Shown one piece after another: positions 7,140 through 52,035 of a stretch of 64,000 nucleotides of DNA. Position numbers and translations under genes: made by a program. The notes beneath the pieces are model-generated. The model was not told the DNA's origin. It searched no databases and saw only the letters and a program-made list of their open reading frames with translations. How positions within the stretch are numbered: the stretch's first letter is position 1; every line of letters starts with the position of its first letter. This DNA is from Eledone cirrhosa (lineage: Eukaryota), in the NCBI GenBank assembly GCA_964016885.1, contig OZ024742.1, positions 86,366,001 through 86,430,000 on the forward strand, read 5' to 3'.

Positions 7140-8341
7140 ATGTTTATATATATATATATATGAAAATAGGGAGAAAGAGACGATTATGAGGAAGAACAAT
7201 ATTTTTTTTCCTTTTTTTTGTGTCTCTCTCTCTCTTTTTTCTGGGTTAGAAAATGATTAAAACGAAATGTTTTACTTTGTGTGAAGTGTTTAGGTATTAG
7301 TTGATTTATTTATTATTTAACAATGGCATTTATTTATCTATTTATATCTTTAATTATTGTCTATTACCGGTTTCTGCATTTATATGCATTATCAAATGAT
7401 AGTGAAATGTATTAGTGTGGTGTTGCACATGTTAAACAGAAGGTGCAGAAAGAATAATGTTATATACAAACAAGGTTTAAGAAGTGAAAAGAAAAAAGAA
7501 AAAGGAAAAAAAAACCTTGCATAATGTGGAAAGTAAAAAGTCAATGTGGAAGAAAGGTTAATGTTATTTACAAGCACAGTCATTGAAGTTAAGCAGTTCA
7601 AAATGTGTTAATATCGCAAGAGTGTTTAGTTGAACCATGGTTCCGTGTAGAAGGCAAATGGTGGACTGTGGTTTGATATGATTTCCCTTTATAGAGAGTT
7701 AATATGCAGGGGAAGCAATTCTTGCTGCGTGATATTTAATTAATTTAAGAAAAAGGATTAGGTAGGGTGTGAGGGAGGTAACTCTTGTAAATATTTGATG
7801 GTTTGTTGCAGTTTTAGAAAGGTGCGAATTTCAGGGTAATTGAGTACTGGTTGAAATTCATTAATGAAATTTGCTTCCTTATTGGTGCGTTGGATGAAAG
7901 TAGCGTTGTCTATGAATTTGTAGATGGGGAAGATTTTAAAGTTTGGAAGTTGGTTGAGAGCACAATTGGCGATATGTTCACTAAATGCAATCTTTTTGTA
8001 TTCCTGTATTTTAATTTGTGATTTATGGACGGTCATACGTTGACGGAGGCTGTTTATTCTCTGTTATATATAGTGCTCTCGACAACCTGAGCAAGTCAAA
8101 ACATAGATAAGGTTTTCAGATGCACATGTAAAGTTGTGTTTAACTGTGAAACGTTGTCCTTTTTTTAAATGGAATGTCGAACCTTCTATTAGATTTATGC
8201 ATATGCCACAGTTGGGCCTTCCGCATTTTGTTACTGTAGGGTTTATTGTGAAGGTTTGTTGGATTTTGGCTTGTGTGAGGATGATTTTTTATGGATTTGG
8301 GTTGTCATTTTCTCTTTATGATGTGTGTTTGGAGGATATTG

Positions 8342-8404: not shown

Positions 8405-8411
<7 letters not shown>

Positions 8412-11400
8412 GTGAATATAGACATAGAATATTCGAAAATATTCTGTATGTTTATAATAAACATTTTGAAGACCTAATCGCTATAGAATAGAATACGTCA
8501 CGTATTACAATTAGATTCTCGATAAAAGCAAGGGAAGTAATCTACGCGTTTCATTCTCGTTAGAAATCATCAGGACTACATATCCAGTGCTTTTATCGAG
8601 AATGACACAGCTAGAGACTTATAGAATACTTAGCTGTGTACAGGAACTGGTTTGAAAGAGCGGTTGCCGGTCCGGCAGAAATTAGAAATTGGAATAAATG
8701 CTCTGAAATAGCGATATATATGTGAATATAGACATAGAATATTCGAAAATATTCTGTATGTTTATAATAAACATTTTGAAGACCTAATCGCTATAGAATA
8801 GAATACGTCACGTATTACAATTAGATTCTCGATAAAAGCAAGGGAAGTAATCTACGCGTTTCATTCTCGTTAGAAATCATCAGGACTACATATCCAGTGC
8901 TTTTATCGAGAATGACACAGCTAGAGACTTATAGAATACTTAGCTGTGTACAGGAACTGGTTTGAAAGAGCGGTTGCCGGTCCGGCAGAAATTAGAAATT
9001 GGAATAAATGCTCTGAAATAGCGATATATATGTGAATATAGACATAGAATATTCGAAAATATTCTGTATGTTTATAATAAACATTTTGAAGACCTAATCG
9101 CTATAGAATAGAATACGTCACGTATTACAATTAGATTCTCGATAAAAGCAAGGGAAGTAATCTACGCGTTTCATTCTCGTTAGAAATCATCAGGACTACA
9201 TATCCAGTGCTTTTATCGAGAATGACACAGCTAGAGACTTATAGAATACTTAGCTGTGTACAGGAACTGGTTTGAAAGAGCGGTTGCCGGTCCGGCAGAA
9301 ATTAGAAATTGGAATAAATGCTCTGAAATAGCGATATATATGTGAATATAGACATAGAATATTCGAAAATATTCTGTATGTTTATAATAAACATTTTGAA
9401 GACCTAATCGCTATAGAATAGAATACGTCACGTATTACAATTAGATTCTCGATAAAAGCAAGGGAAGTAATCTACGCGTTTCATTCTCGTTAGAAATCAT
9501 CAGGACTACATATCCAGTGCTTTTATCGAGAATGACACAGCTAGAGACTTATAGAATACTTAGCTGTGTACAGGAACTGGTTTGAAAGAGCGGTTGCCGG
9601 TCCGGCAGAAATTAGAAATTGGAATAAATGCTCTGAAATAGCGATATATATGTGAATATAGACATAGAATATTCGAAAATATTCTGTATGTTTATAATAA
9701 ACATTTTGAAGACCTAATCGCTATAGAATAGAATACGTCACGTATTACAATTAGATTCTCGATAAAAGCAAGGGAAGTAATCTACGCGTTTCATTCTCGT
9801 TAGAAATCATCAGGACTACATATCCAGTGCTTTTATCGAGAATGACACAGCTAGAGACTTATAGAATACTTAGCTGTGTACAGGAACTGGTTTGAAAGAG
9901 CGGTTGCCGGTCCGGCAGAAATTAGAAATTGGAATAAATGCTCTGAAATAGCGATATATATGTGAATATAGACATAGAATATTCGAAAATATTCTGTATG
10001 TTTATAATAAACATTTTGAAGACCTAATCGCTATAGAATAGAATACGTCACGTATTACAATTAGATTCTCGATAAAAGCAAGGGAAGTAATCTACGCGTT
10101 TCATTCTCGTTAGAAATCATCAGGACTACATATCCAGTGCTTTTATCGAGAATGACACAGCTAGAGACTTATAGAATACTTAGCTGTGTACAGGAACTGG
10201 TTTGAAAGAGCGGTTGCCGGTCCGGCAGAAATTAGAAATTGGAATAAATGCTCTGAAATAGCGATATATATGTGAATATAGACATAGAATATTCGAAAAT
10301 ATTCTGTATGTTTATAATAAACATTTTGAAGACCTAATCGCTATAGAATAGAATACGTCACGTATTACAATTAGATTCTCGATAAAAGCAAGGGAAGTAA
10401 TCTACGCGTTTCATTCTCGTTAGAAATCATCAGGACTACATATCCAGTGCTTTTATCGAGAATGACACAGCTAGAGACTTATAGAATACTTAGCTGTGTA
10501 CAGGAACTGGTTTGAAAGAGCGGTTGCCGGTCCGGCAGAAATTAGAAATTGGAATAAATGCTCTGAAATAGCGATATATATGTGAATATAGACATAGAAT
10601 ATTCGAAAATATTCTGTATGTTTATAATAAACATTTTGAAGACCTAATCGCTATAGAATAGAATACGTCACGTATTACAATTAGATTCTCGATAAAAGCA
10701 AGGGAAGTAATCTACGCGTTTCATTCTCGTTAGAAATCATCAGGACTACATATCCAGTGCTTTTATCGAGAATGACACAGCTAGAGACTTATAGAATACT
10801 TAGCTGTGTACAGGAACTGGTTTGAAAGAGCGGTTGCCGGTCCGGCAGAAATTAGAAATTGGAATAAATGCTCTGAAATAGCGATATATATGTGAATATA
10901 GACATAGAATATTCGAAAATATTCTGTATGTTTATAATAAACATTTTGAAGACCTAATCGCTATAGAATAGAATACGTCACGTATTACAATTAGATTCTC
11001 GATAAAAGCAAGGGAAGTAATCTACGCGTTTCATTCTCGTTAGAAATCATCAGGACTACATATCCAGTGCTTTTATCGAGAATGACACAGCTAGAGACTT
11101 ATAGAATACTTAGCTGTGTACAGGAACTGGTTTGAAAGAGCGGTTGCCGGTCCGGCAGAAATTAGAAATTGGAATAAATGCTCTGAAATAGCGATATATA
11201 TGTGAATATAGACATAGAATATTCGAAAATATTCTGTATGTTTATAATAAACATTTTGAAGACCTAATCGCTATAGAATAGAATACGTCACGTATTACAA
11301 TTAGATTCTCGATAAAAGCAAGGGAAGTAATCTACGCGTTTCATTCTCGTTAGAAATCATCAGGACTACATATCCAGTGCTTTTATCGAGAATGACACAG

Positions 11401-11512
11401 CTAGAGACTTATAGAATACTTAGCTGTGTACAGGAACTGGTTTGAAAGAGCGGTTGCCGGTCCGGCAGAAATTAGAAATTGGAATAAATGCTCTGAAATA
11501 GCGATATATATG
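8405..11512 (-). repeat. Tandem array of 10 x 310-bp HHR-containing units (retrozyme-like), left arm
   Basis: tgtgaatata recurs at 8411, 8721, 9031 ... 11201 (period 310); no differences between copies noticed; no ORF; HHR on the minus strand. Confidence 0.95.
8537..8579 (-). ncRNA. Type I hammerhead ribozyme (first of 10 minus-strand copies, every 310 bp)
   Basis: GUAGUC-CUGAUGA-U-UUCU aacg AGAA-U-GAAAC-GC-GUA-GAUUAC: 6-bp stem I, intact core, minimal palindromic stem III (ACGCGU). Confidence 0.85.
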
Positions 11513-12881
11513 TAAATACGTGACGTATTCTATTCTATAGCGATTAGGTCTTCAAAATGTTTATTATAAACATACAGAATATTTTCGAATATTCTATGTC
11601 TATATTCACATATATATCGCTATTTCAGAGCATTTATTCCAATTTCTAATTTCTGCCGGACCGGCAACCGCTCTTTCAAACCAGTTCCTGTACACAGCTA
11701 AGTATTCTATAAGTCTCTAGCTGTGTCATTCTCGATAAAAGCACTGGATATGTAGTCCTGATGATTTCTAACGAGAATGAAACGCGTAGATTACTTCCCT
11801 TGCTTTTATCGAGAATCTAATTGTAATACGTGACGTATTCTATTCTATAGCGATTAGGTCTTCAAAATGTTTATTATAAACATACAGAATATTTTCGAAT
11901 ATTCTATGTCTATATTCACATATATATCGCTATTTCAGAGCATTTATTCCAATTTCTAATTTCTGCCGGACCGGCAACCGCTCTTTCAAACCAGTTCCTG
12001 TACACAGCTAAGTATTCTATAAGTCTCTAGCTGTGTCATTCTCGATAAAAGCACTGGATATGTAGTCCTGATGATTTCTAACGAGAATGAAACGCGTAGA
12101 TTACTTCCCTTGCTTTTATCGAGAATCTAATTGTAATACGTGACGTATTCTATTCTATAGCGATTAGGTCTTCAAAATGTTTATTATAAACATACAGAAT
12201 ATTTTCGAATATTCTATGTCTATATTCACATATATATCGCTATTTCAGAGCATTTATTCCAATTTCTAATTTCTGCCGGACCGGCAACCGCTCTTTCAAA
12301 CCAGTTCCTGTACACAGCTAAGTATTCTATAAGTCTCTAGCTGTGTCATTCTCGATAAAAGCACTGGATATGTAGTCCTGATGATTTCTAACGAGAATGA
12401 AACGCGTAGATTACTTCCCTTGCTTTTATCGAGAACCTAATTGTAATACGTGACGTATTCTATTCTATAGCGATTAGGTCTTCAAAATGTTTATTATAAA
12501 CATACAGAATATTTTCGAATATTCTATGTCTATATTCACATATATATCGCTATTTCAGAGCATTTATTCCAATTTCTAATTTCTGCCGGACCGGCAACCG
12601 CTCTTTCAAACCAGTTCCTGTACACAGCTAAGTATTCTATAAGTCTCTAGCTGTGTCATTCTCGATAAAAGCACTGGATATGTAGTCCTGATGATTTCTA
12701 ACGAGAATGAAACGCGTAGATTACTTCCCTTGCTTTTATCGAGAATCTAATTGTAATACGTGACGTATTCTATTCTATAGCGATTAGGTCTTCAAAATGT
12801 TTATTATAAACATACAGATTATTTTCGAATATTCTATGTCTATATTCACATATATATCGCTATTTCAGAGCATTTATTCCA

Positions 12882-12883
<2 letters not shown>
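11513..12883 (+). repeat. Inverted arm of the 310-bp array, about 4.4 units
   Basis: Reverse complement of the same unit; ttgtaatacg at 11821, 12131, 12441, 12751; only two substitutions seen (12436, 12819). Confidence 0.95.
11752..11794 (+). ncRNA. Type I hammerhead ribozyme (further copies 12062-12104, 12372-12414, 12682-12724)
   Basis: gtagtc ctgatga tttctaacgagaat gaaac gc gta gattac; predicted cleavage after GUA at 11788; enclosed by 15-bp stem ttctcgataaaagca/tgcttttatcgagaa. Confidence 0.85.
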
Positions 12884-16094: not shown

Positions 16095-17689
16095 ATGTAT
16101 GTGGGTGCGTGGGGTGGGGGTGTCTGTGTGCGTTTCTGCGTGTGTGTATGTATGTATAAGGATATATAATATGTGTATGTAAAAATTTGAGTTTCAAGTT
16201 AAGATAAATATATTTTCAGCTTATTTATGTGTTGATTGTACGCTGTCTGTGATTTATCGATGTAGTTTTAAATGTTGCTTTGAATTCCTTGTATATATGA
16301 CGTATATTCCAGTTTCAGTAACATTGATATGCGCTGTTACAGTATTTCTTCCTATATCTGATTAAACGCATGTATTTATAAGTGTGTATTTATCTGTTTG
16401 TGTGTAAGTGTACAATTGAACGTCCATATATTCATATATATATGGAATTTGAATTAAAAATATGTAAAATATATATATACATATATAAAATGATATTAAA
16501 TAAATGGAAACTATATTTATAAAACCATATTTATTTTATTATATATATTTCAAATAGTAACCAAGACAACATTGGTACGCTTTCATCAGATAAAATACAA
16601 AGTTTGTTTTATAAATCATACTTTATCGGTTGGAAATTCACTGGATAGTGGAAATATATTAGGGATTATTCAAACTTATGTGTGAATATGCAAATGAATA
16701 TTTAAATAATTGAAAAACAACCGATTATTTAAATGACACTGGAGAAAGAGAAAGAGAAAAAATATAAGTGTATAGAGATAAAAAAATATTACAAGAGCGA
16801 TAGAGAGGAGAAATTAACAAGAGGATGAATAAAACTCATATAACATTAATTTAGGGGAAATATATGTCTAATAGTACGTGTATTTACGATTAATTAGTTG
16901 TTTAAAATTATTTTCTAATATAATATTTTCTGTTATACGTATATAGAAACATAAATAGATAGAAAAATAGATAGAAAATAAATAAATAAATAAATAGATA
17001 AATAAATAAATAAATAAATAAATAATTAAATAGATAAATAGATAAATAGATAAATACATGAATAAATGAGTATATCGTGTTATAGATAATTGTTTTAATG
17101 AGTTATGAGGGATATTGGTTTTGTATTAATGTAAGTAAATATTAAGCTAAATTAAATTAAGTTAACTGAGTTAATAAGAATATTTATATTTATATATTTT
17201 AAAATGGGAAGATACGGAAAAAACTCAAGTTTTCTTTAGTTATTCATTAGTATGAGATTATTTTGTAAAAATAAGTATAAATGTTGAAAGATATATTTAG
17301 CCAGAATTAGTTAGTGTTTATAAATCTAATAAAAGTCATAGAAAAAATATAAAAAATTCGAGTACATTTTTTTAAAAAATAATTTATAAGAGATAAGTAA
17401 TTTTTAAAAGTTAAGTAATTTTTCAAAATAGATAAAAAATTAAAGAAATAAAAAATAAAGAATTAAACATTATTAAGATTAAAATTATAATTAAAATTAA
17501 AATTAAAATTAAAATTAAAATTTAAAAATTTAGAATTATATATATATATATTTTTTATGAAACTTTCAGAAGTGAAATTATAGCAAATGATATGATTTAG
17601 AGATATCAATATATTAAAACCAAGTGTATGAGATTGTTATGGAAATAAGTAGAAATATTATAAGTGTAATTATAATTTATATATATTTC

Positions 17690-18810
17690 TAAATGTTGAA
17701 TTCATGCGATGTCTACAAGAACGAAAAAAAGTTGTCCTTATATTAAGAAAGTTCTTACATTTAAGTATGAAACAAATTTCCTCAACACACAATTGGCAGA
17801 ATCTAGATAAAGCTGTGTTTCATTACGCGGGTGCTTTGAAATTATTTCCCAAGTTAATGAATAGTCCATATTTTTGCATTTTAAGTTCCATATCAGGTTT
17901 GAAATAGAAGTTGAAGAGTTTTTATCAAATCTTAGGAAAGAGCATTTGTGATTATTCCAGCGAATTTTAAATTCTGTAGAAGTTGCACCTACATATTTAA
18001 ATATATTATCACTGATTTTAACTATACATTTATAGATCACATGCTTATCTAAACACTTATTTTGTAACGGACGGTTTAATTTAATTCTACAGTTATATTT
18101 TGCCGAGTTGTTGTTATTCAGAACGGTACTATTATGTTGGATATTTTTAGAGATATTACTGCTATTTTGGTTATTTTGGTTAGGGTTTAAATTTCTATTA
18201 TTGATTCTATTTATATTTTGTACTATGTTCAGAGTAGTAGAGTAAGATAGTTTTATAGTATGTCTGTTAAAGATTGAATGGTATCTGTGGGCTTTAGGAA
18301 AACATTTATCTAATGCTTTAAATAATAGCTTTGCTAAAGGTGTTTTAACGGTTAATGAGAATGGGGGTGCGTACCAAATAATATTTCTAGTTCTATTTCT
18401 TCTGTTAGTTTTAGAGTTTAAGTTAGATTTTTTATAGTAATTATAATTAATAGTATGGTTATTTGCATTATCACTGTTGTCGATGTATTTAATCTTATTT
18501 ATATAGCCTGCTCTATTTAAAACTTCATTATGCTATCCGGCCTTATCGTCAAAAATGTTTTTATTAGCGGAGATGCGTGAAATACGTTGTTGGATAGCAT
18601 TGACAAGATTGTTCTTGATAGATCTAGGATGATTAGAGTAAAAAATACATGGTTTAGATTCTCATTAATTTTATGGAACAGATAGTAGAGTCCTTTATTA
18701 AGGTTTAATCATTACGTCTAAAAAGATAACAATGTTATAGTTATTCTCTATTTCTAACTTAGGGTTGTAGCTATTGAAGAATTGTATTATGGATTTTCTT
18801 TTTCTATTAA
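17690..18810 (-). mobile_element. Penelope-like element (RT thumb region, linker and GIY-YIG), degraded
   Basis: Minus strand: RNIIWYAPPFS..KTPLAK...DKCFPKAHRYHSIFNRHTIKLSYS...NCRIKLNRPLQNKC...IYKCIV...KYVGATSTEFKIRWNNHKCSF...IWNLK...WEII. Confidence 0.88.
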
Positions 18811-27404: not shown

Positions 27405-30400
27405 TATTATTATTATTATTACAGTTGCATTTATCTTGCTTTATGTTCATACGAGTTATCACCAAGTCACAACCAGTGACCTCAAGAGACAACAAGGGCC
27501 GCCATTTTCAAGAAAGAACATACATACTCACACATGCATCTTTAGTGTTTAGACTTGTGATGTACTTATATTGACAGAATCTTCCTTAGTATATGGGCAG
27601 TTCCCATTAGTACTATCTTTTGTATTTCTCCTATACGCGGGTTTCCTGGGATTTGCGATAAGTAATCAATAGACCCCTTAGGTATCATTCCCAGAGCGCC
27701 TACAACCACTGGTATTGTTTTAGTTCTCAATTTTCACATTTTTCCAATTTCTATCACCAGGTCCTTATACTTGCTCAATTTTTCAAATGTTTTATAGATA
27801 CATTCTTGTCTATTGGAACAGACATATCAATTAGCAGGCATACCCTCTTTTTAAAGTCTTTCAATATTATATCAGGTCTATTTGCATCTATTTTTCGGTC
27901 TGTTTGGATGCTAAAGTTCCACAGGATTAAGATGTGATCTTTTTCAAGAACGGGAGGTGGTTGATGCTCCCACCAATTCTTTTGATGGGGCAGATCAAAA
28001 TGCTTACACATTATCCAATATATGTATTGTGCAGCTCTGTCATGCCTGTTTAGGTATTCGGTTGGAGCTATAGGACTGCACATTGAAATTATATGGTCAA
28101 TGGTCTCTGGTTGTTTTTTGCATACACGGCATAATGGGCTGCATCCATATTTTATTATGTTGGCTTGGTAATTTTTTGTTGGCAGACACTGATCTTGTGC
28201 TGATATAATCAGTCCTTCAGTCTCCGATTTCAGTCCAGAGGATGCCAACCACTGATGGGTTAAAGTTTTGTCAACATCAGGATTGTGAGCTCGCTCTGGG
28301 TATTTTCCATACAGAGGCTTTTCTTGCCATTTCTTAGCCAGTTTCTGTAGCAGTTCTTTCTCTGCAGTTACTTTTACCTGCTTTGCTTTTTCTGTGTTTT
28401 CCATTTCAGCAGTAAATGGGACTTCTGAAATTTGTAGTCCATTACTGTATCTTTGTGCATCTTTTGTAATGGAATATGAACTTTTGATGCTTTCGTGTTT
28501 CAAAACGAGTTTGATCATCCAATCATGTGATTCCCTTAGATATGTAGATAATCCAATTGTCGCAGTTTTCAACGCAATGTCTAACTGGATTAACCCACGT
28601 GCTACTTCTTTCCTAGGGAGAGATATTCTATCTATATCTGCCTTAGGGTGATGCATTCTGTGCATGGTGAAGAATTTTCGAATTTTTGTATCGAGCCTAC
28701 GGATCTCTGTGCTTGACCAGTTGATGACATTGTAACTGCAGGTTACTACTGGTATGGCAAGCGTGTTATGGCATCGATCCTATTCCTTGCATTCAATTCC
28801 GTTCTTAATATTGCTCTTACTCTGCGGTAACATTCCTTCCTTATCCTTTCCCTCATTGTCGAGTGCTTGATTCCGTCTCCTTCACAAACACCTAGATATT
28901 TGTAAGTTTTTTCTTGATCAAGTTCTCTCATCACGTTCCCCCGATCAAGATTAATGTCTGAACTCTTCAGCAGCTTTCCTCTGGTGAACGTTGCTTTGGC
29001 GCATTTATCTAGTCCAAACTCCAATTTAATGTCATCACTGAACTGCTCCACAGTGGATAATAGCCCTTGCAATTGTTCATCATTTTTTGCAAATAGTTTC
29101 AGGTCATCCATGTAGAATAGGTGATTAATGATTTTGTCATAGACTTTATATCCATGTTTTGTTTCATTGAGCATTTTACTTAATGGTATAAGTGCGATGC
29201 AGAATAAAAGCGGTGATAAAGAGTCACCCTGAAACATTCCACAATTAATATTAACTTCTCCAGCTTCCAGTGATTTTGTTTCACTATTCAAAAGGAGTGT
29301 TGTTTTCCATGTCTTCATACTGAATGACAAAAACCTCCTGACAACGGGGGATATTTTGAAAATCTCTAAACATTTTTCAATCCAACTGTGTGGCAAACTA
29401 TCGAATGCTTTTTTATAATCTATCCAAGCAATCGATAGATTTTTGTGTCTATTATGACAATCTTCCAGTATCATTTTGTTAACCAGAAGCTGATCCTTAC
29501 AGCCATATGAGCCTCGTTTACACCCTTTCTGCTCAATGGGAAATAGGTCATTTGTTATCAGGTGGTCATAAGTGTATTCAGTTAGGACTGATGTTAAAAT
29601 GTTATACATTGTGGTCAAGCAAGTTATCGGTCTGTAATTTTTGGGATTGTTTTTCTCATCATTCTTCGGAAGCAGGAATGTAATGCCGTTAACTAGCCAT
29701 GATGGTATCTTTTCTGGCTCCTTAACTATTTCATTGTAAAGTTGGGCTAACAGCTCATGAGAGTCTGTGAAGGCATTTATCTAAAAGTTTTGTATTTTGT
29801 CTTTTCCTGGGGATTTCCATTTGCTGGTTTTTCTTAGAGCCAAGCGCAACTGTTCAACTGTTATATTTACCCATATTTGTTCCTCAAGGTGAGCTGTATC
29901 TTTCATTTGTCTGTCTATCCATGGGGCATGTATGTTATGAACTTTTTCTTCGGCCCAGATCTTTTCCCAGAATTCTTGCACTTCCTCCTTGGGTGGTATT
30001 GATTTAGCAGTTATTGTTGACTTACCAATTTTTCTGTAGAAGTTGCTTTGGTTGTTTTTGAACATATTATTGTCCTTATAGAATCTAGATCGTTTTTCAA
30101 AGCGCGTCATACGAGCAGCTTTGGCCGACACTTTTTGTTTGATTATTTCTATCAGCATGTCTATGTCACATGTTGATTTTATACTGTACTTTTTTTTCAA
30201 TTTTCTAAGTTTAGTTTGTTTAACATGTTCACCTACTTTATAGTTTGTTAAAATTTCTATGTCAGATCGGAGTAGGTTTATTTGGCGATTGATGTTCTCT
30301 TGCCAAGTAGATTTCTTGTGGGACTTCCTTTGTTTTTTCATCTTCACTCCACATAAGTGAGTGGTGACTTTAGCCGATGCATAATAGAGATGATTTAAAT

Positions 30401-31375
30401 CAGTAATGTTTAGTTTGTTTGTGATGATAATGTTTTTTGAGAATTATGTTAGTCTTATGTATTATCTTTTGGTTCTGTTTAGAGTTCTGGATCTTAGGGA
30501 GGGTGTCTCGTTGCCCCATGTCAGATTCTTTCATTTTCATCCAGTCGATCATAATTTCATCCTTCAAGTTGCCAAGTTCATTCTCATTCATTTCTTTATC
30601 ATTTACGATCTCATTATTTTCATTTGGAGTTTCATCTTGAGCATGCACTCCCTCCACTTTTTCGATCCTTTCTTTAATTTGTTCTGTTGCCAGTGATTCC
30701 GCCCCAACCCTGGGGTTCGAAGTGTTACAGTTTACCTCATTTTCACTGACACATGTTTCATTTTCCCTTCGCTGACTTTGTGCTAATAGCTTGATCTGAT
30801 CAATTTCTATATCAGTTAGTAACTTTTTTCTTACAATATTTCTTCGTATATTGGCTAGTTTGTTACTGTCAATATAGCCTCTGTTTTCGGGATGTTTCTT
30901 TTTCCAGTTGATATATGTCTGTTCTGTATTCGATGTATTTGATGGGTAGTACATGGCAGTGTAGAAAGCCTCAAGGACTTCTTTATTATCTTCCCTTGAC
31001 CATTTTTCTCTCTTTATCTTTGGATTTCTTGGTGGTGAGCATGGAGTAGGCGTATTCAGGTTATGGGAGGTCTCCAGCTCCGAAGTGATGGGAAGGTTTG
31101 AACCATTAGCTGATTTTTCGACCCCAGTCTGGTTCCTCTCTGAGGGACGCGGGCCTTTTTTACCCGGGTGACGGCCGATGCGGTATGAGATTTTATCATT
31201 AGACATTTACTTTATTTTGTCGCGTTTTATCCTTATCCGCCAAGGGGTAATCATTTCGTGTTACCACTTCTAGAACGAGTGTCAACCAAGACTAGAGGGG
31301 TCGTTCTCCCCTAGAGACATGGCTATTCCACGCCGGCCGCAATCCCGGTATTTCTTGGTCACGGGGTTTTCTTTT
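27403..31375 (-). mobile_element. R4/Dong-type non-LTR retrotransposon, near full length, disrupted ORF (31206 to 27566)
   Basis: ORF pieces encode NYRPITCL, EQKGC, WIDYKKAFDS, FQGDSLSPLLF, HLFYMDDLKL, CRVC..PETIDHIISMC, RHD, RPDII and VVGALG. Several frameshifts and stops; ends in (TAA)n. Confidence 0.93.
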
Positions 31376-33314: not shown

Positions 33315-36300
33315 TCAGATATTCAGGACGTATCGGAGGGTTCTTGCTGTTCCAAGCAAGCATGCCTTTTGAAGCGTTCCAAAAAGCGTGAAGGGGCCGA
33401 TTTTCTTTAACCATCCCTGGAAACCTTTGGAGATAGTCCCCAGTGCGCCTATGACAATCGGGATCACTTTGACTTCATGGCAGTTCCAAATCCTTTTCAC
33501 CTCCCACTTTAGGTCCTGGTATCGGTTAATTTTCTCCCTCTCCTTCTCTTGCACTCTCGTGTCGAACGGGCAGGCCACATCCACAATCAGGCACGATCTT
33601 TTTTCTTTGTCCACAACCACCAGGTCAGGTCTATTGTGTTCCAGTTTTTTGTCCGTCTGTATCCTAAAATCCCACAGCACCTTCACCTGACTGTTCTCCA
33701 TCACCGCCTCTGGCCTATGCTCATACCATTTCTCAGAATGTGGTAGATTGTTTACTTTGCACAGGTGCCAGTGGATCACCCTGCCCATCACATCGTGTCT
33801 CCAGCCCTTATAGTGGGTCTGGGCTAGGTGTTTACACTCGGACACAATGTGAGCCACAGTCTCCTCTCTCTCTCCACAGATCCTGCACAGTGGGCTAGCC
33901 TCCTCCTTGTAGATATGGTGCTTCAACCACTTCGTTTTGAGGGCCTGCTCCTGCGCAGCCATTAGCATTCCTTCTGTAGCCTTTTTGAGGTCTCCTCTTC
34001 TCAACCAGTTCCATGTCTGTGGATCTCTAAATTCAGTTTTCTCAAAGAAGGTACTATGAAGGGATTTTCCCTTAAGGCTGCTCTTCCTCCTTGATGTTAT
34101 TTCCTCCTTGGATATCCCCTGGCCTACTGTCCCCTCCTTCAGTACAGCTCTGAGCATTGGCTCCTTACTATAGGTCACGTATTTGTATAGGTTGTTTTTC
34201 TCCATCTGAACACAGTCCTCTATACTGATAAGACCTCTTCCACCCTCAGATCTCCTTAGGTAGAGTCTATCGACATCACTCCTCTTGTGGAACATGTTGT
34301 AGATAGTCAATAGCTTCCTAGTCTTCCTATCCATTTCTTTTTGTTCAGCAACATTCCATCTCAGAATTCCCGCACTGTACCTAATAATAGACACAGCTCG
34401 GGAATTTACTGCGCTTATGGCATTTCTGCTGTTCAGATGTGACTTCAATACGCTCCTTACTCTCCGAATGTATTCAGTTCTTAACAATTCCTTCATTTTT
34501 TTGTTCTTTATGCCATCAGCCTCCAGAACGCCCAAATACTTGTATCCTTCCTCAGAGTCAATTTCCTTTATCATCTCACCTGTTGGTATCTGGATCCCGT
34601 TACTTCTGCTCAACCTACCCCTCTTCATCACAATGACTCCACATTTACCAATACCAAACTGCATACGTATATCACTGCTGAAAATACGGACAGTGTCAAC
34701 AAGCACATCCAACTCCTTCTCACTTTTCCCGAAGAGCTTAAGATCGTCCATGAAGAGGAGGTGATTGATGGTAAGCTCTCCCCTTCCCAACTTGTATCCT
34801 GCTCTCACTTTTCGCAGCATAATGGTCAAGGGCATCAGGGCAAGGACAAACAACAGAGGGGACAGGCTATCTCCCTGGAAGATACCTCTCTTGATCTTCA
34901 CGCTTCCCAAGGATACTCCAGTTGATGTCAACTCTGTCTCCCAGGACCCCATACTCCTGCCCAGCAACTGTCTGATGTTATCAGCCACCCTGAAGATCTC
35001 CAGGCTTTTGGTGATCCAGGAATGAGGCACCATGTCAAATGCCTTTCTGTAGTCTATCCATCCCATGGCAAGATCAGTGTGTCTCCTCCTGCAATTCCCC
35101 ATTACCATCTTATCAATAAGCAACTGGTCCTTTGTACCACGTGACTTCTTTCGGCATCCTTTCTGTTCGTCCGGTAACAAGTTGTTTGTGTGGAGGTGAT
35201 GGTAGATTTCCTCAGACACAATGCTCGTCAACAGTTTCCACATTACGGGCAGACATGTGATAGGTCTATAGTTGGTAACATCATTACCCTTGATTCGGTC
35301 TTTCATTATCAGAACTGTGGTACCTTTTGTCAACCACTCTGGCACCTCACCCGACACCAAGCAGTCATTGAACATGGCCGTCAGCTTCGGGTGGAGGGAT
35401 GTTAAATGTTTAATCCAATACCCCTGCACACCATCTGGGCCTGGTGATTTCCAGTTGGTTAGTTTTTTGGCTTGCCCCTTAAGAGTTTCAACTGTGATAC
35501 TCAAATCAGTCTGTTGTTGTGCCTGCTCACCGATCTCCCTCTGTACTGTCTCAATCCACTCTGCCTGGGCATTGTGTCTAACATCCTGCTCCCATATTCC
35601 TCTCCAGAATGTTTTAGCTTGTTCCGCCCCAGGGATCAAGTCGTTGCCTCTTTCTTTCCCCTCAAGCTGTCCAAACAGCATCTTCTGGTTGTTGTCGAAC
35701 ATGCGGTTCTGTTTATACTGACTGACTCTGTTCTCGTATCGCCTGATTTTGGCACTCTTTGCTACAATGCGTTGCTTCAATTCCTCTATGATAATATTTA
35801 GCTTTTTACTCCTAGTTTTGTATTTTATTTCCAGTCTATTTTTAGTGCCTATGTTTTTTAGTGTCCCATTCAGTAGTGACTCAAGCTTTCCTATGTTATT
35901 TCTCATTTCCCCGATTTGCCCACTCAGTCGTTTCTTCCACCACGGCTCTGCTCTTTCTTGTCTGTTGTTTCCTCTCGCTTTTATACCAAGTAGTTTCCTC
36001 ACCGTATTTGCTGTTGCTTTGAGGATATTGTTGCACTGGTGAAGACTCCTCGCCTCAAGGTATGGGATGACTTTGTTTACCTTAGCTGTTGTTTCTTTTA
36101 ACTTTTTCCTGTCTACAAATCTTAGGTTCATAGGTCTCCCACTATCATTGTTCAACTCATCTACCACTAAATTTAGGATGTCAACCGAATCTTGTCCTAG
36201 CCCGTCAGCATTCATCTCCTCAGTGGCCGTATCTCTGTTCCAGGTATTATTTATCTCAGTATTCAGATCATTGTCTGCTTCGGGTGGTTCCTCCGTTCTC

Positions 36301-36707
36301 AGGACCTCCTCACCTTCATTTCCCGCCGGCTCGCTTGTCTGGCATACTACACCCGCCATCTCCAAGCCATTCTCTCTGCTCAGTTCCTCCAGTTCCAGCT
36401 CGCTTATCCACCCATTAGTTCTTATTACCCGAGCCTGCCCGGCCAATTTTTGTTCATCTAATTTAAATAAACCAATCTCGTTCCAGATGTTATGCATCCG
36501 TCTCCTGTAGCCCCTCTCCTTGGGGTTACTTTTCAGGTAGCATTGCATAACAGTTCTATTCAATTCTTTCGTCCAGTTGGTTCTGGCCCCTTTCCTTCTT
36601 CTTCTTCCTCCAACATCAGCAGTATTTGGTTGACAGTCAGGTTCCTGCTGCTGAGCCAGGGGGCACCTGTTGGGTGAGAGTCTGTCACATGACGTTCTAG
36701 TCTCCAT
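33315..36707 (-). CDS. Intact R4/Dong-clade non-LTR retrotransposon protein (RT, CCHC knuckle, restriction-like endonuclease), 1130 aa
   Basis: Uninterrupted ORF with KSPGPDG, NYRPITCL, WIDYRKAFD, GIFQGDSLSP, FMDDLKL, YKYLG, CRIC..EETVAHIVSEC, RHD, RPDLVV..IVDVACP..EKINRY. Element spans about 33241-36773 between (TAA)n tracts. Confidence 0.95.
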   Translation of the reverse strand: METRTSCDRLSPNRCPLAQQQEPDCQPNTADVGGRRRRKGARTNWTKELNRTVMQCYLKSNPKERGYRRRMHNIWNEIGLFKLDEQKLAGQARVIRTNGWISELELEELSRENGLEMAGVVCQTSEPAGNEGEEVLRTEEPPEADNDLNTEINNTWNRDTATEEMNADGLGQDSVDILNLVVDELNNDSGRPMNLRFVDRKKLKETTAKVNKVIPYLEARSLHQCNNILKATANTVRKLLGIKARGNNRQERAEPWWKKRLSGQIGEMRNNIGKLESLLNGTLKNIGTKNRLEIKYKTRSKKLNIIIEELKQRIVAKSAKIRRYENRVSQYKQNRMFDNNQKMLFGQLEGKERGNDLIPGAEQAKTFWRGIWEQDVRHNAQAEWIETVQREIGEQAQQQTDLSITVETLKGQAKKLTNWKSPGPDGVQGYWIKHLTSLHPKLTAMFNDCLVSGEVPEWLTKGTTVLIMKDRIKGNDVTNYRPITCLPVMWKLLTSIVSEEIYHHLHTNNLLPDEQKGCRKKSRGTKDQLLIDKMVMGNCRRRHTDLAMGWIDYRKAFDMVPHSWITKSLEIFRVADNIRQLLGRSMGSWETELTSTGVSLGSVKIKRGIFQGDSLSPLLFVLALMPLTIMLRKVRAGYKLGRGELTINHLLFMDDLKLFGKSEKELDVLVDTVRIFSSDIRMQFGIGKCGVIVMKRGRLSRSNGIQIPTGEMIKEIDSEEGYKYLGVLEADGIKNKKMKELLRTEYIRRVRSVLKSHLNSRNAISAVNSRAVSIIRYSAGILRWNVAEQKEMDRKTRKLLTIYNMFHKRSDVDRLYLRRSEGGRGLISIEDCVQMEKNNLYKYVTYSKEPMLRAVLKEGTVGQGISKEEITSRRKSSLKGKSLHSTFFEKTEFRDPQTWNWLRRGDLKKATEGMLMAAQEQALKTKWLKHHIYKEEASPLCRICGEREETVAHIVSECKHLAQTHYKGWRHDVMGRVIHWHLCKVNNLPHSEKWYEHRPEAVMENSQVKVLWDFRIQTDKKLEHNRPDLVVVDKEKRSCLIVDVACPFDTRVQEKEREKINRYQDLKWEVKRIWNCHEVKVIPIVIGALGTISKGFQGWLKKIGPFTLFGTLQKACLLGTARTLRYVLNI

Positions 36708-36770
36708 TTCACCGTTATTCGAACTGTTTATGTTCGATATTTAAACACTCTTATCGATATTTAAACACTC

Positions 36771-50247: not shown

Positions 50248-50854
50248 CGAAGAAAATGTGTAAGGAACCGGATGGACCATAACGCACCAGAGTACTCACT
50301 ACTTAGGATAGTAGAGTCCAGAAATAGCCGTCGAAACGTCTTGAGCTCTGCCGTCGGGGTCATACTTTTTCCTATATATATATATATATATCAAATAAAC
50401 AAGCGACGGACTGTACTACTCTTCATATCCTGATTAATGCAAACAGGAAAAAAACAGGGAATATCTTCTCATTTATTACAGTCGATATATTTCCAAAGAT
50501 AACCGATAAATTATTTACAATAATATTCAGAATAAATCAATTATGTGTCTTAAACATTTTGCATATATATATAAACAAAAAAGAAATGTTACTCTCTTCG
50601 GATGTTTTATATTCCAGAATTTGTTTTACTTGGTACGTTTATCGGAGATTAGTGTCAATCATTCTTAAGAACATATACAATATCAAAGAACGATTTATCT
50701 GAGATTTTATATATTTGTATTATATTTGATTTGGAAAAAAAAAACGAAAATATTTCGTTAGTAAAATCTAGAATATAAATAACAGAGCCTAGAATTTGTG
50801 TTTTACAATTTTTCGTTTCCTTTTCTCTTAAATGTCCACCTCTCACGCGCACAC

Positions 50855-51072: not shown

Positions 51073-51680
51073 CATATATATATACATATATACAAAGAGA
51101 GAACGAGAGAGAGAGAGAGAGAGATAGATAGAGGCAGAGTGAGAGAGGCAGAGAGAGAGAGGGGGGATGGGTTATGGAAAAATATAAAAAAAAGATTAAG
51201 TTACGCACTTATTTAATCAAGTCACTTTTTCCCTTAATCTTGGAACACGTGGTTGTTGCACCATTACGCCGTGCATTGTCCTGTACAACACTTGTGATTG
51301 TCTAGAGAATATGTATTCCTGTCACTTCTTCATTCAATCGATCAGGATTTAACTTTCAGGTTGTGACAAGGCGTGGTTTTTACTGTTGCACTGATTGAAC
51401 CCAGTGCAGGCGGTGTATTACATTCTTAAAGCGTTTCTAATATTCATCACTGGTTGGCACACAGTTCAAAAATGCATAATAACAGTGACAATAAATAAGA
51501 GGTGTGCAGATGTTGAATTGGTTTCTTCAGTTCTTTTCATTATATACCATTGAATATATGAGAGAGATGAACACCGATACAAGAATACATGTTTCGAATT
51601 GCAAATGACCAAGTTAGCTCGGTTGAAAAAAATACTAATTTAAAACAATATGGTTTGCTTGACTAGAATTCGAGTAATAA

Positions 51681-52035
51681 TATATACATCGCTATTTCAG
51701 AGCACCAATTCTAATTTTCAACTTTTGCTGGACCGTCAACCGCTCTGTATAATCAGTTCCTAATTATTACTGGAATTCTATAAGAGTCCAACATTCATAA
51801 TTTTCAACAGGCAAAGGGAGTGCTAAGCTCTGAGTAATACCAACAGTATGAAACAGAGCTCTGTCAGCTTATCACCCTTTGTTCTTTGAAAAAAGAAGTA
51901 TGTGACATAGTCACTACTTTAAAACAATAGCGTACGGTCTTCAAAATGTTTTTAATTAAGCGTACAGTATATTACCAAGTACACTATATATACATTCATA
52001 TATACATCGCTATTTCAGAGCACCATTTCTAATAT
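51681..52035 (+). mobile_element. 318-bp retrozyme-like monomer with terminal redundancy, related to the 310-bp unit
   Basis: tatatacatcgctatttcagagcacc at 51681 and 51999; colinear blocks shared with the 310-bp unit; HHR-like motif at 51824-51871. Confidence 0.78.

Follow-up and report, generated by a model that had tools for sequence, protein, structure and literature searches.

A 64,000-nt stretch of Eledone cirrhosa DNA (hereafter the window) holds a 318-bp unit that a first-pass annotation described as a diverged sister of a 310-bp retrozyme, with the same scaffold and a hammerhead of different sequence. This raises the question of which features of the locus are those of one copy, which are those of a family, and what has been selected in the elements from which the copy came. 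We conclude, with a probability of roughly 0.85, that the locus is a decayed single copy of a high-copy, non-coding type I hammerhead lineage, which probably spread as a non-autonomous retrozyme with the help of a Penelope-like element (PLE).

One decayed copy and its lineage

The seven sequence blocks listed for the unit on first pass, the hammerhead-like motif and its enclosing stem were all present where they had been placed (Table 1). The proposed colinearity and homology with the 310-bp unit were borne out: local alignment of the two units gave a score of 217, far above 1,000 dinucleotide shuffles (29.9 +/- 4.7, maximum 53) and above 497 real fragments of the window (maximum 59), and the identity of the 318-bp unit as a retrozyme was likewise supported. 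Globally, the units were identical in 217 of 297 aligned columns. By part, identity was 74/98 in the 5' portion, 65/119 in the hammerhead arm and 78/114 in the 3' portion, making the arm the most diverged third. The reported 35-bp terminal redundancy was correct in length, being the sum of a 7-nt AT run and a 28-nt tail, but its nature had to be corrected to a Penelope-type tail. The locus at 51688-52033 is thus a single monomer plus tail, not a tandem array. No reading frame of at least 100 aa overlaps the unit, GC content in the surrounding 2 kb is 0.32, and no empty insertion site was identified for the copy. Its left flank (51560-51680) is a different high-copy repeat, also seen at two other loci (L332, L339), which stops exactly at the copy's start.

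Table 1. Features of the 318-bp copy and the 310-bp array, in window coordinates.
Feature	Position	Strand	Remarks
Monomer, retrozyme lineage subfamily c21, 318 bp	51688..52005	+	decayed; 18 substitutions off c21 consensus
End of unit's internal AT run	51681..51687	+	5' boundary of the copy; abuts another repeat
Penelope-type tail, 28 nt	52006..52033	+	repeats unit start; followed by AT run
Tail-proximal block	51690..51703	+	predicted partners 51927-51932 (closing helix) and 51742-51747 (Y-shaped helix)
GC-rich invariant block	51730..51747	+	predicted hairpin and partner strand of tail block
Likely snRNA-type promoter remnant	51753..51784	+	TCAGT 51753-51757, TATAAG 51779-51784; by motif position, PWM test negative
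Long stem bearing hammerhead	51801..51892	+	strong covariation among subfamilies
Type I hammerhead	51824..51871	+	by motif and pairing
Hammerhead helix I	51824-29/51866-71	+	
Hammerhead core	51830-36	+	G8U at 51835
Hammerhead helix II	51837-49	+	
Hammerhead GAAA	51850-53	+	
Hammerhead helix III	51853-64	+	predicted cut between 51865 and 51866
GTGAC hairpin	51902..51914	+	pairing register differs in 310-bp family
Conserved 3' block and three small hairpins	51936..52004	+	compensatory changes; AT run at end
Young 310-bp subfamily array	8405..12883	10 copies minus, 4.4 plus	inversion at 11515; tail on right end only

A DNA search of the 3.0-Gb genome with the 318-bp unit returned 2,482 first-look candidates, and the 39 other places that were scored were 91-94% identical over the main match. 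Exact matches to two hammerhead patterns numbered 932 and 523, compared with 0 for the reversed-pattern controls. A variant pattern in which the GC-rich block is followed by A or C gave 16 matches, all of them mutants of known subfamilies. For the 310-bp unit the DNA search had returned 16 candidates, a low copy number that was overturned by 16,741 pattern matches genome-wide; the search undercounted this unit because it skips very common words.

The loci fetched for analysis, which were picked by similarity or pattern and not randomly, contained 226 distinct full-length units. We aligned 189 of these (all 164 non-310 units and 25 of the 62 310-type units) and obtained 11 clusters of at least three units plus 20 smaller ones, the window copy belonging to cluster c21 (n = 49). 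Across the lineage, units are low in GC, non-coding and 310-322 bp long, within the retrozyme size class of 150-450 bp; tandem units each with a hammerhead occur as 310-bp arrays, and no LTR-type structure was seen in the locus maps. The 318-bp and 310-bp units belong to a single lineage, which comprises at least 11 subfamilies. The c21 and 310-bp hammerheads are bridged by intermediate subfamilies, along which helix II is altered step by step and helix III is reduced from three pairs and a palindromic loop to one pair; the 310-bp unit has the helix I of subfamily c15. This stepwise series argues against the claim that the hammerhead had been replaced.

The 310-bp subfamily is young and abundant. 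Its units lie 1.0% from their consensus, its arrays average 5.6 units (the first 100 matches listed fall in 18 loci), and the units of the array in the window carry intact minimal hammerheads by motif and pairing analysis. The non-310 subfamilies lie 3.7-6.1% from their own consensuses and span a median of 1.4 and a maximum of 4.1 unit lengths, so that age and array length are confounded between the 310-bp and the other subfamilies.

We also analyzed the CUGAGUA core, which had been taken as non-canonical and probably inactive. At the level of the family a type I hammerhead was found, with the core CUGANGA...GAAA...UH, a 3-8 pair, three helices recovered by consensus folding, and an open helix I. 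The core is canonical C3-G8 in 44 of the 49 c21 units, and the window copy lacks an intact core owing to a private G8U substitution that is common to 0 of its 48 siblings; CUGAGUA is thus no family feature. Core position 8 was G in 288/306 and 260/280 reads from two independent DNA runs. Among the 189 aligned units the 3-8 pair was C-G in 86 and U-A in 91 (177/189 paired), with C3-A8 in 6, and a hand count of the first 100 hammerhead-pattern matches listed gave 34 C3-G8, 58 U3-A8, 8 mismatched and 0 C3-U8. The 18 substitutions that separate the window copy from its consensus comprise 6 that break pairs, 6 that keep them and 6 at unpaired positions, a spread that looks like decay. With the core mutation, the copy is probably dead, in agreement with the first-pass annotation on this point. 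An Rfam search of the window (E <= 1) gave 110 matches, microsatellite-driven miRNA and snoRNA only, and 0 hammerheads, intact 310-bp units also being missed; the ribozyme call therefore rests on motif and pairing analysis.

Compensatory changes, invariant blocks and the promoter question

The hammerhead arm of the window copy folds with a z-score of -4.3, and none of 200 shuffles was equally stable. Folded as circles, the 11 subfamily consensuses reached z-scores of -5.2 to -9.8 (25 shuffles each) and shared one branched structure. Covariation was evaluated against a home-made simulation on a tree of the 11 consensuses, in which each column's change count was kept (400 runs). The 15 hammerhead pairs showed 15 double changes compared with 1.8 expected, a number reached in 0 of 400 simulations. 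The enclosing stem showed 10 (1.4 expected) and the 3' hairpins 4 (0.4 expected), both less independent because their pairs were predicted from the same alignment, and the 5' invariant pairs showed 0 double changes among the 11 subfamilies.

The non-helical 3-8 pair of the core showed 3 double changes compared with 0.36 expected (1/400 simulations). It is C-G in five of the subfamily consensuses, U-A in the other six and mismatched in none. On a tree built with the hammerhead masked, a single switch between C3-G8 and U3-A8 was rejected (AU p = 0.0005), whereas a two-switch tree was not (AU p = 0.24); the branch leading to the 310-bp subfamily is long. The core pair thus switched at least twice, that is two or three times, within the lineage. 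Template switching could account for part of the helix covariation but not for that of the 3-8 pair, because this pair is non-helical. The compensatory changes in the helices show selection on the RNA fold in the source elements, as had been suspected from conserved structure; a distant family with the same topology agrees with this. The repeated swaps of the core pair likely reflect selection on catalysis in these elements, judged from their sequences.

The distant family yielded 3,264 candidates with 85-91% identity to the query copy, and 30 copies were aligned (L378, L442-L471, L162). It gave local scores of 59 and 64 to two lineage consensuses (shuffle maxima 45 and 44) and of 40 to c21 (shuffle maximum 49). 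Its predicted fold keeps the topology of the lineage with altered sequence in the closing and Y-shaped helices, and it carries a C3-G8 core in 24/30 copies and a perfect octamer in 23/30. By these similarities it appears to be an older relative of the lineage. The invariant blocks of the unit had been proposed as reverse-transcriptase-recognition or promoter signals, but they divide in two kinds: the TCAG...TATAAG region is likely a promoter by motif position, whereas the tail-proximal blocks, which pair and change compensatorily in the distant family, are therefore likely RNA structure under the predicted fold.

A perfect octamer lies 41 nt before a conserved TATA-like box in two lineage members (L255, L305), and four more members have decayed versions; these octamer-bearing copies are probably basal in the lineage. 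All 11 main subfamilies, c21 included, are without the 12-nt octamer segment, which in c21 would sit just downstream of the GC-rich block, and the TCAG...TATAAG region lines up with the octamer-TATA arrangement of the octamer-bearing copies. The octamer-TATA distance is 43 nt in the distant family, 40-41 nt in two other hammerhead repeats and 45-47 nt in host U6 genes, in which the octamer lies ~77 nt upstream. In host U1 and U2 genes, TCA(G/A)T lies ~57 nt upstream and is followed by a TATA-like run near -30, with no octamer within 200 nt (U2) or 110 nt (U1) upstream, and the same TCA(G/A)T-then-TATA order was seen by eye in the unit at 51688-52005. An ungapped U1/U2 matrix, built from 9 promoters and weak in leave-one-out, missed the proposed promoter in 18/18 sequences. 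No tRNA A or B boxes were seen in the unit by eye against the consensus, and its T runs would argue against Pol III read-through. Taken at the level of motifs, the lineage likely had an snRNA-type promoter ancestrally.

Tandem snRNA gene arrays were observed on G000 at C19 (U6), C3 and C13 (U2), and C2 and C1128 (U1). Further hammerhead repeats with an octamer were also seen. One (L362:6380-8001, also in L164, L215, L282 and L381, with decayed window copies at 2746 (-) and 23091 (-)) has a tandem unit of ~490-510 bp, octamer and TATA 41 nt apart and a core ~88 nt after the octamer; another (L365:300-1100 (-); L020) has a ~466-bp unit with 40 nt from octamer to TATA-like box.

Insertion pattern and the readings it leaves

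Among 190 fully seen non-310 insertions, 113 were inverted, 76 direct and 1 head-to-head. A one-sided tail was found in 77 of the 81 inverted non-310 insertions with both ends typed (the other 32 had an untyped end) and in 9/9 inverted 310-type insertions, and an AT run followed the tail in 34/46 and 11/13 cases. AT-microsatellite targets, inverted arms and a one-sided tail together are, by analogy, a Penelope signature: for PLE insertions, a tail confined to one end, partly tandem units, copies that are inverted and truncated 5', and a bias for (TA)n have been described (Craig et al. 2021, PMC8557442). Both end types also occur, at AT runs, in Neptune-like PLEs of this genome, 13/39 ends being tailed in one family, and the tails of these PLEs had no resemblance to the 28-nt tail of the lineage.

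Intact frames with reverse transcriptase (RT) and GIY-YIG nuclease are present in the genome, including a 784-aa frame. None of 35 Neptune loci and of 30 plus 20 GIY-YIG loci among the top-scoring hits held an autonomous element sharing the scaffold; strong scaffold hits at GIY-YIG loci looked like separate AT-run insertions or were far from the nuclease gene. No autonomous element joined to the scaffold was found by tblastn of 311 loci, nothing was shared in the DNA upstream of 21 truncated copies, and 16 and 30 variant-pattern loci plus 70 scanned loci contained unit copies without an attached PLE frame.

Several further elements were observed in the window and at the fetched loci. In a very active Neptune-like PLE (321-2123; L061-L095), the 784-aa frames are preceded by a frame of ~320 aa; the element also has a 33-nt tail and, near its 3' end, a hammerhead-like motif with U3-A8 and GCAA replacing GAAA; 150/150 scored hits were identical over 67 C-terminal residues. 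A second Neptune-like family (7758-8330 (-); L312-L339), whose fragment lies beside the AT run holding the 310-bp array, has a U3-A8 hammerhead-like motif whose helix III is minimal and palindromic. Another five type I hammerhead-like motifs lie at 16589 (-), 25929 (-), 27214 (+), 41402 (+) and 46115 (-), that at 16589 downstream of a PLE-like frame (17738-18532, no Pfam match). An abundant short AT-run repeat with a GAAA/helix III-like hairpin (50248-50368; L091:283-485) probably represents a further non-autonomous family of PLE type. A reverse transcriptase frame of 1,141 aa that is intact (33315-36740 (-)) and its broken relative (27775-31206 (-)) are of non-LTR type with a nuclease-like C-terminal end. 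At L292 (C1:327904137-327907231), a complex retrozyme insertion and its flank occur in three copies with ~1.53-kb spacing, a secondary tandem duplication.

If the lineage is a PLE-mobilised retrozyme, an internal snRNA-type promoter in intact source copies would drive the synthesis of multimeric transcripts, which the hammerhead would cut to monomers that circularise, as in described retrozymes (PMC7229834). A Penelope-type RT with a GIY-YIG nuclease would then begin copying from the fixed site of the tail, and partial-tandem and inverted cDNA would be inserted into AT microsatellites, in the pattern that we observed; inserted copies such as that at 51688-52005 would decay afterwards. A more specific form of this reading, which we consider less likely than not, makes the lineage an old, self-contained circular-RNA satellite of PLEs with its own snRNA-type promoter, in which a cloverleaf would recruit the RT by shape and not by pseudo-LTR similarity. 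Its ribozyme would be under continuous selection, and the strength of the ribozyme would set array length: a minimal, dimer-dependent helix III would give long arrays, and a stable helix III short insertions.

Other explanations have lower standing. An origin of the units as solo or deleted pseudo-LTRs from an unsampled autonomous Penelope-like family, in which fold and ribozyme would be selected and from which each subfamily would be shed separately, is unlikely. Such an origin has a precedent in Xenopus, where the ends of 24/57 retrozyme families show homology to known elements, nearly always PLEs (Li, Clavereau and Pollet, bioRxiv 10.64898/2026.07.22.740005), and in the present genome hammerhead-like motifs with U3-A8 cores are found close to the 3' ends of PLEs; moreover, our partner search covered top-scoring GIY-YIG loci only. 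Yet the 16, 30 and 70 loci held units with no PLE frame attached, the truncated copies have nothing in common upstream, and 310-bp arrays averaging 5.6 units among the first 100 matches listed fit copying of the unit itself.

It is very improbable that we are dealing with a sister family in which the hammerhead was exchanged for another sequence and the non-canonical core is a family trait. The hammerhead arm is the most diverged part, as noted above, but the part concerning the core is already refuted by the canonical state in c21, and the intermediates, the helix I shared with c15 and the stepwise helix II connect the two hammerheads. We give the least credence to a satellite or foldback DNA repeat that spread at the DNA level, its palindromes kept by template switching and its hammerhead a neutral relic: many of the stems do consist of near-perfect inverted repeats, and recombination can lengthen tandem arrays, yet template switching cannot explain the two to three double changes of the non-helical 3-8 pair, and the internal inversions, like the fixed tails on one side, agree with PLE integration.

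Comparison with known systems

The window copy is a mutated copy of a small, many-copy hammerhead repeat of a kind already known, the animal non-LTR retrozymes. The lineage resembles the metazoan elements of Cervera and de la Pena (2020, PMC7229834) in its non-coding, low-GC units of ~300 bp, which contain a type I hammerhead and occur as dimers to multimers; units of mussel retrozymes are 350-390 bp, and the U-U mismatch at the base of helix II is common to the axolotl form and the 310-bp unit. Expression, cleavage and circles were demonstrated for those retrozymes and are predicted from DNA sequence for the present lineage. The lineage was not found in the literature searched, which excluded Repbase/Dfam entries and subscription journals, and the text of PMC7229834 has 0 occurrences of "octopus".

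Li et al. likewise describe hammerhead monomers, dimers and multimers that co-occur with PLEs, and advance the same model. Their link to PLEs is sequence similarity to Xenopus pseudo-LTRs; ours is insertion architecture, no such partner having been found. By their definition, which requires two consecutive complete hammerheads, the window locus is an inactive monomer, and cleavage was seen in only 1/9 Xenopus dimers that they tested. PLEs and non-autonomous Chlamys elements such as MRC1 (PMC8557442) share the partial tandems, inversions, one-end tail and (TA)n bias, the tail being 28 nt in our lineage and 30-40 nt in theirs; unlike those elements, the lineage has no coding frame, and no 3' similarity to an autonomous family was found among the PLEs sampled. 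Newt satellite 2 is a hammerhead tandem repeat with an internal snRNA-type promoter and reported Pol II transcription (PMC2220036), whereas the promoter here is suggested by motif position only and the octamer is absent from the 11 main subfamilies.

The locus itself is ordinary, and it is the lineage that offers a test bed for selection on catalysis in PLE-mobilised elements. Craig et al. regard the function of hammerheads in PLEs as unclear and the motifs as possible mere parasites of PLEs (PMC8557442), and PLE mobilisation of animal retrozymes is a proposal (PMC7229834; bioRxiv 10.64898/2026.07.22.740005), to which the one-sided tail and inversion counts add direct insertion evidence. The compensatory swaps of a non-helical core pair in the source elements suggest that cutting is selected and likely matters for spreading, and the subfamilies together offer naturally occurring ribozyme sequences with C3-G8 and U3-A8 cores, helix III in monomer- and dimer-type forms, and predicted promoters with and without the octamer. 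Covariation from C3-G8 to U3-A8 is natural, including in Schistosoma PLEs, and U3-A8 is reported to be active in vitro (Perreault et al. 2011, PMC3088659; Cervera and de la Pena 2014, PMC4209133); unlike in those cases, both core states alternate at least twice here in one lineage of one genome. Relative to the retrozymes of PMC7229834, the present lineage thus adds an integration signature, a series of 11 subfamilies and swaps of the core pair.
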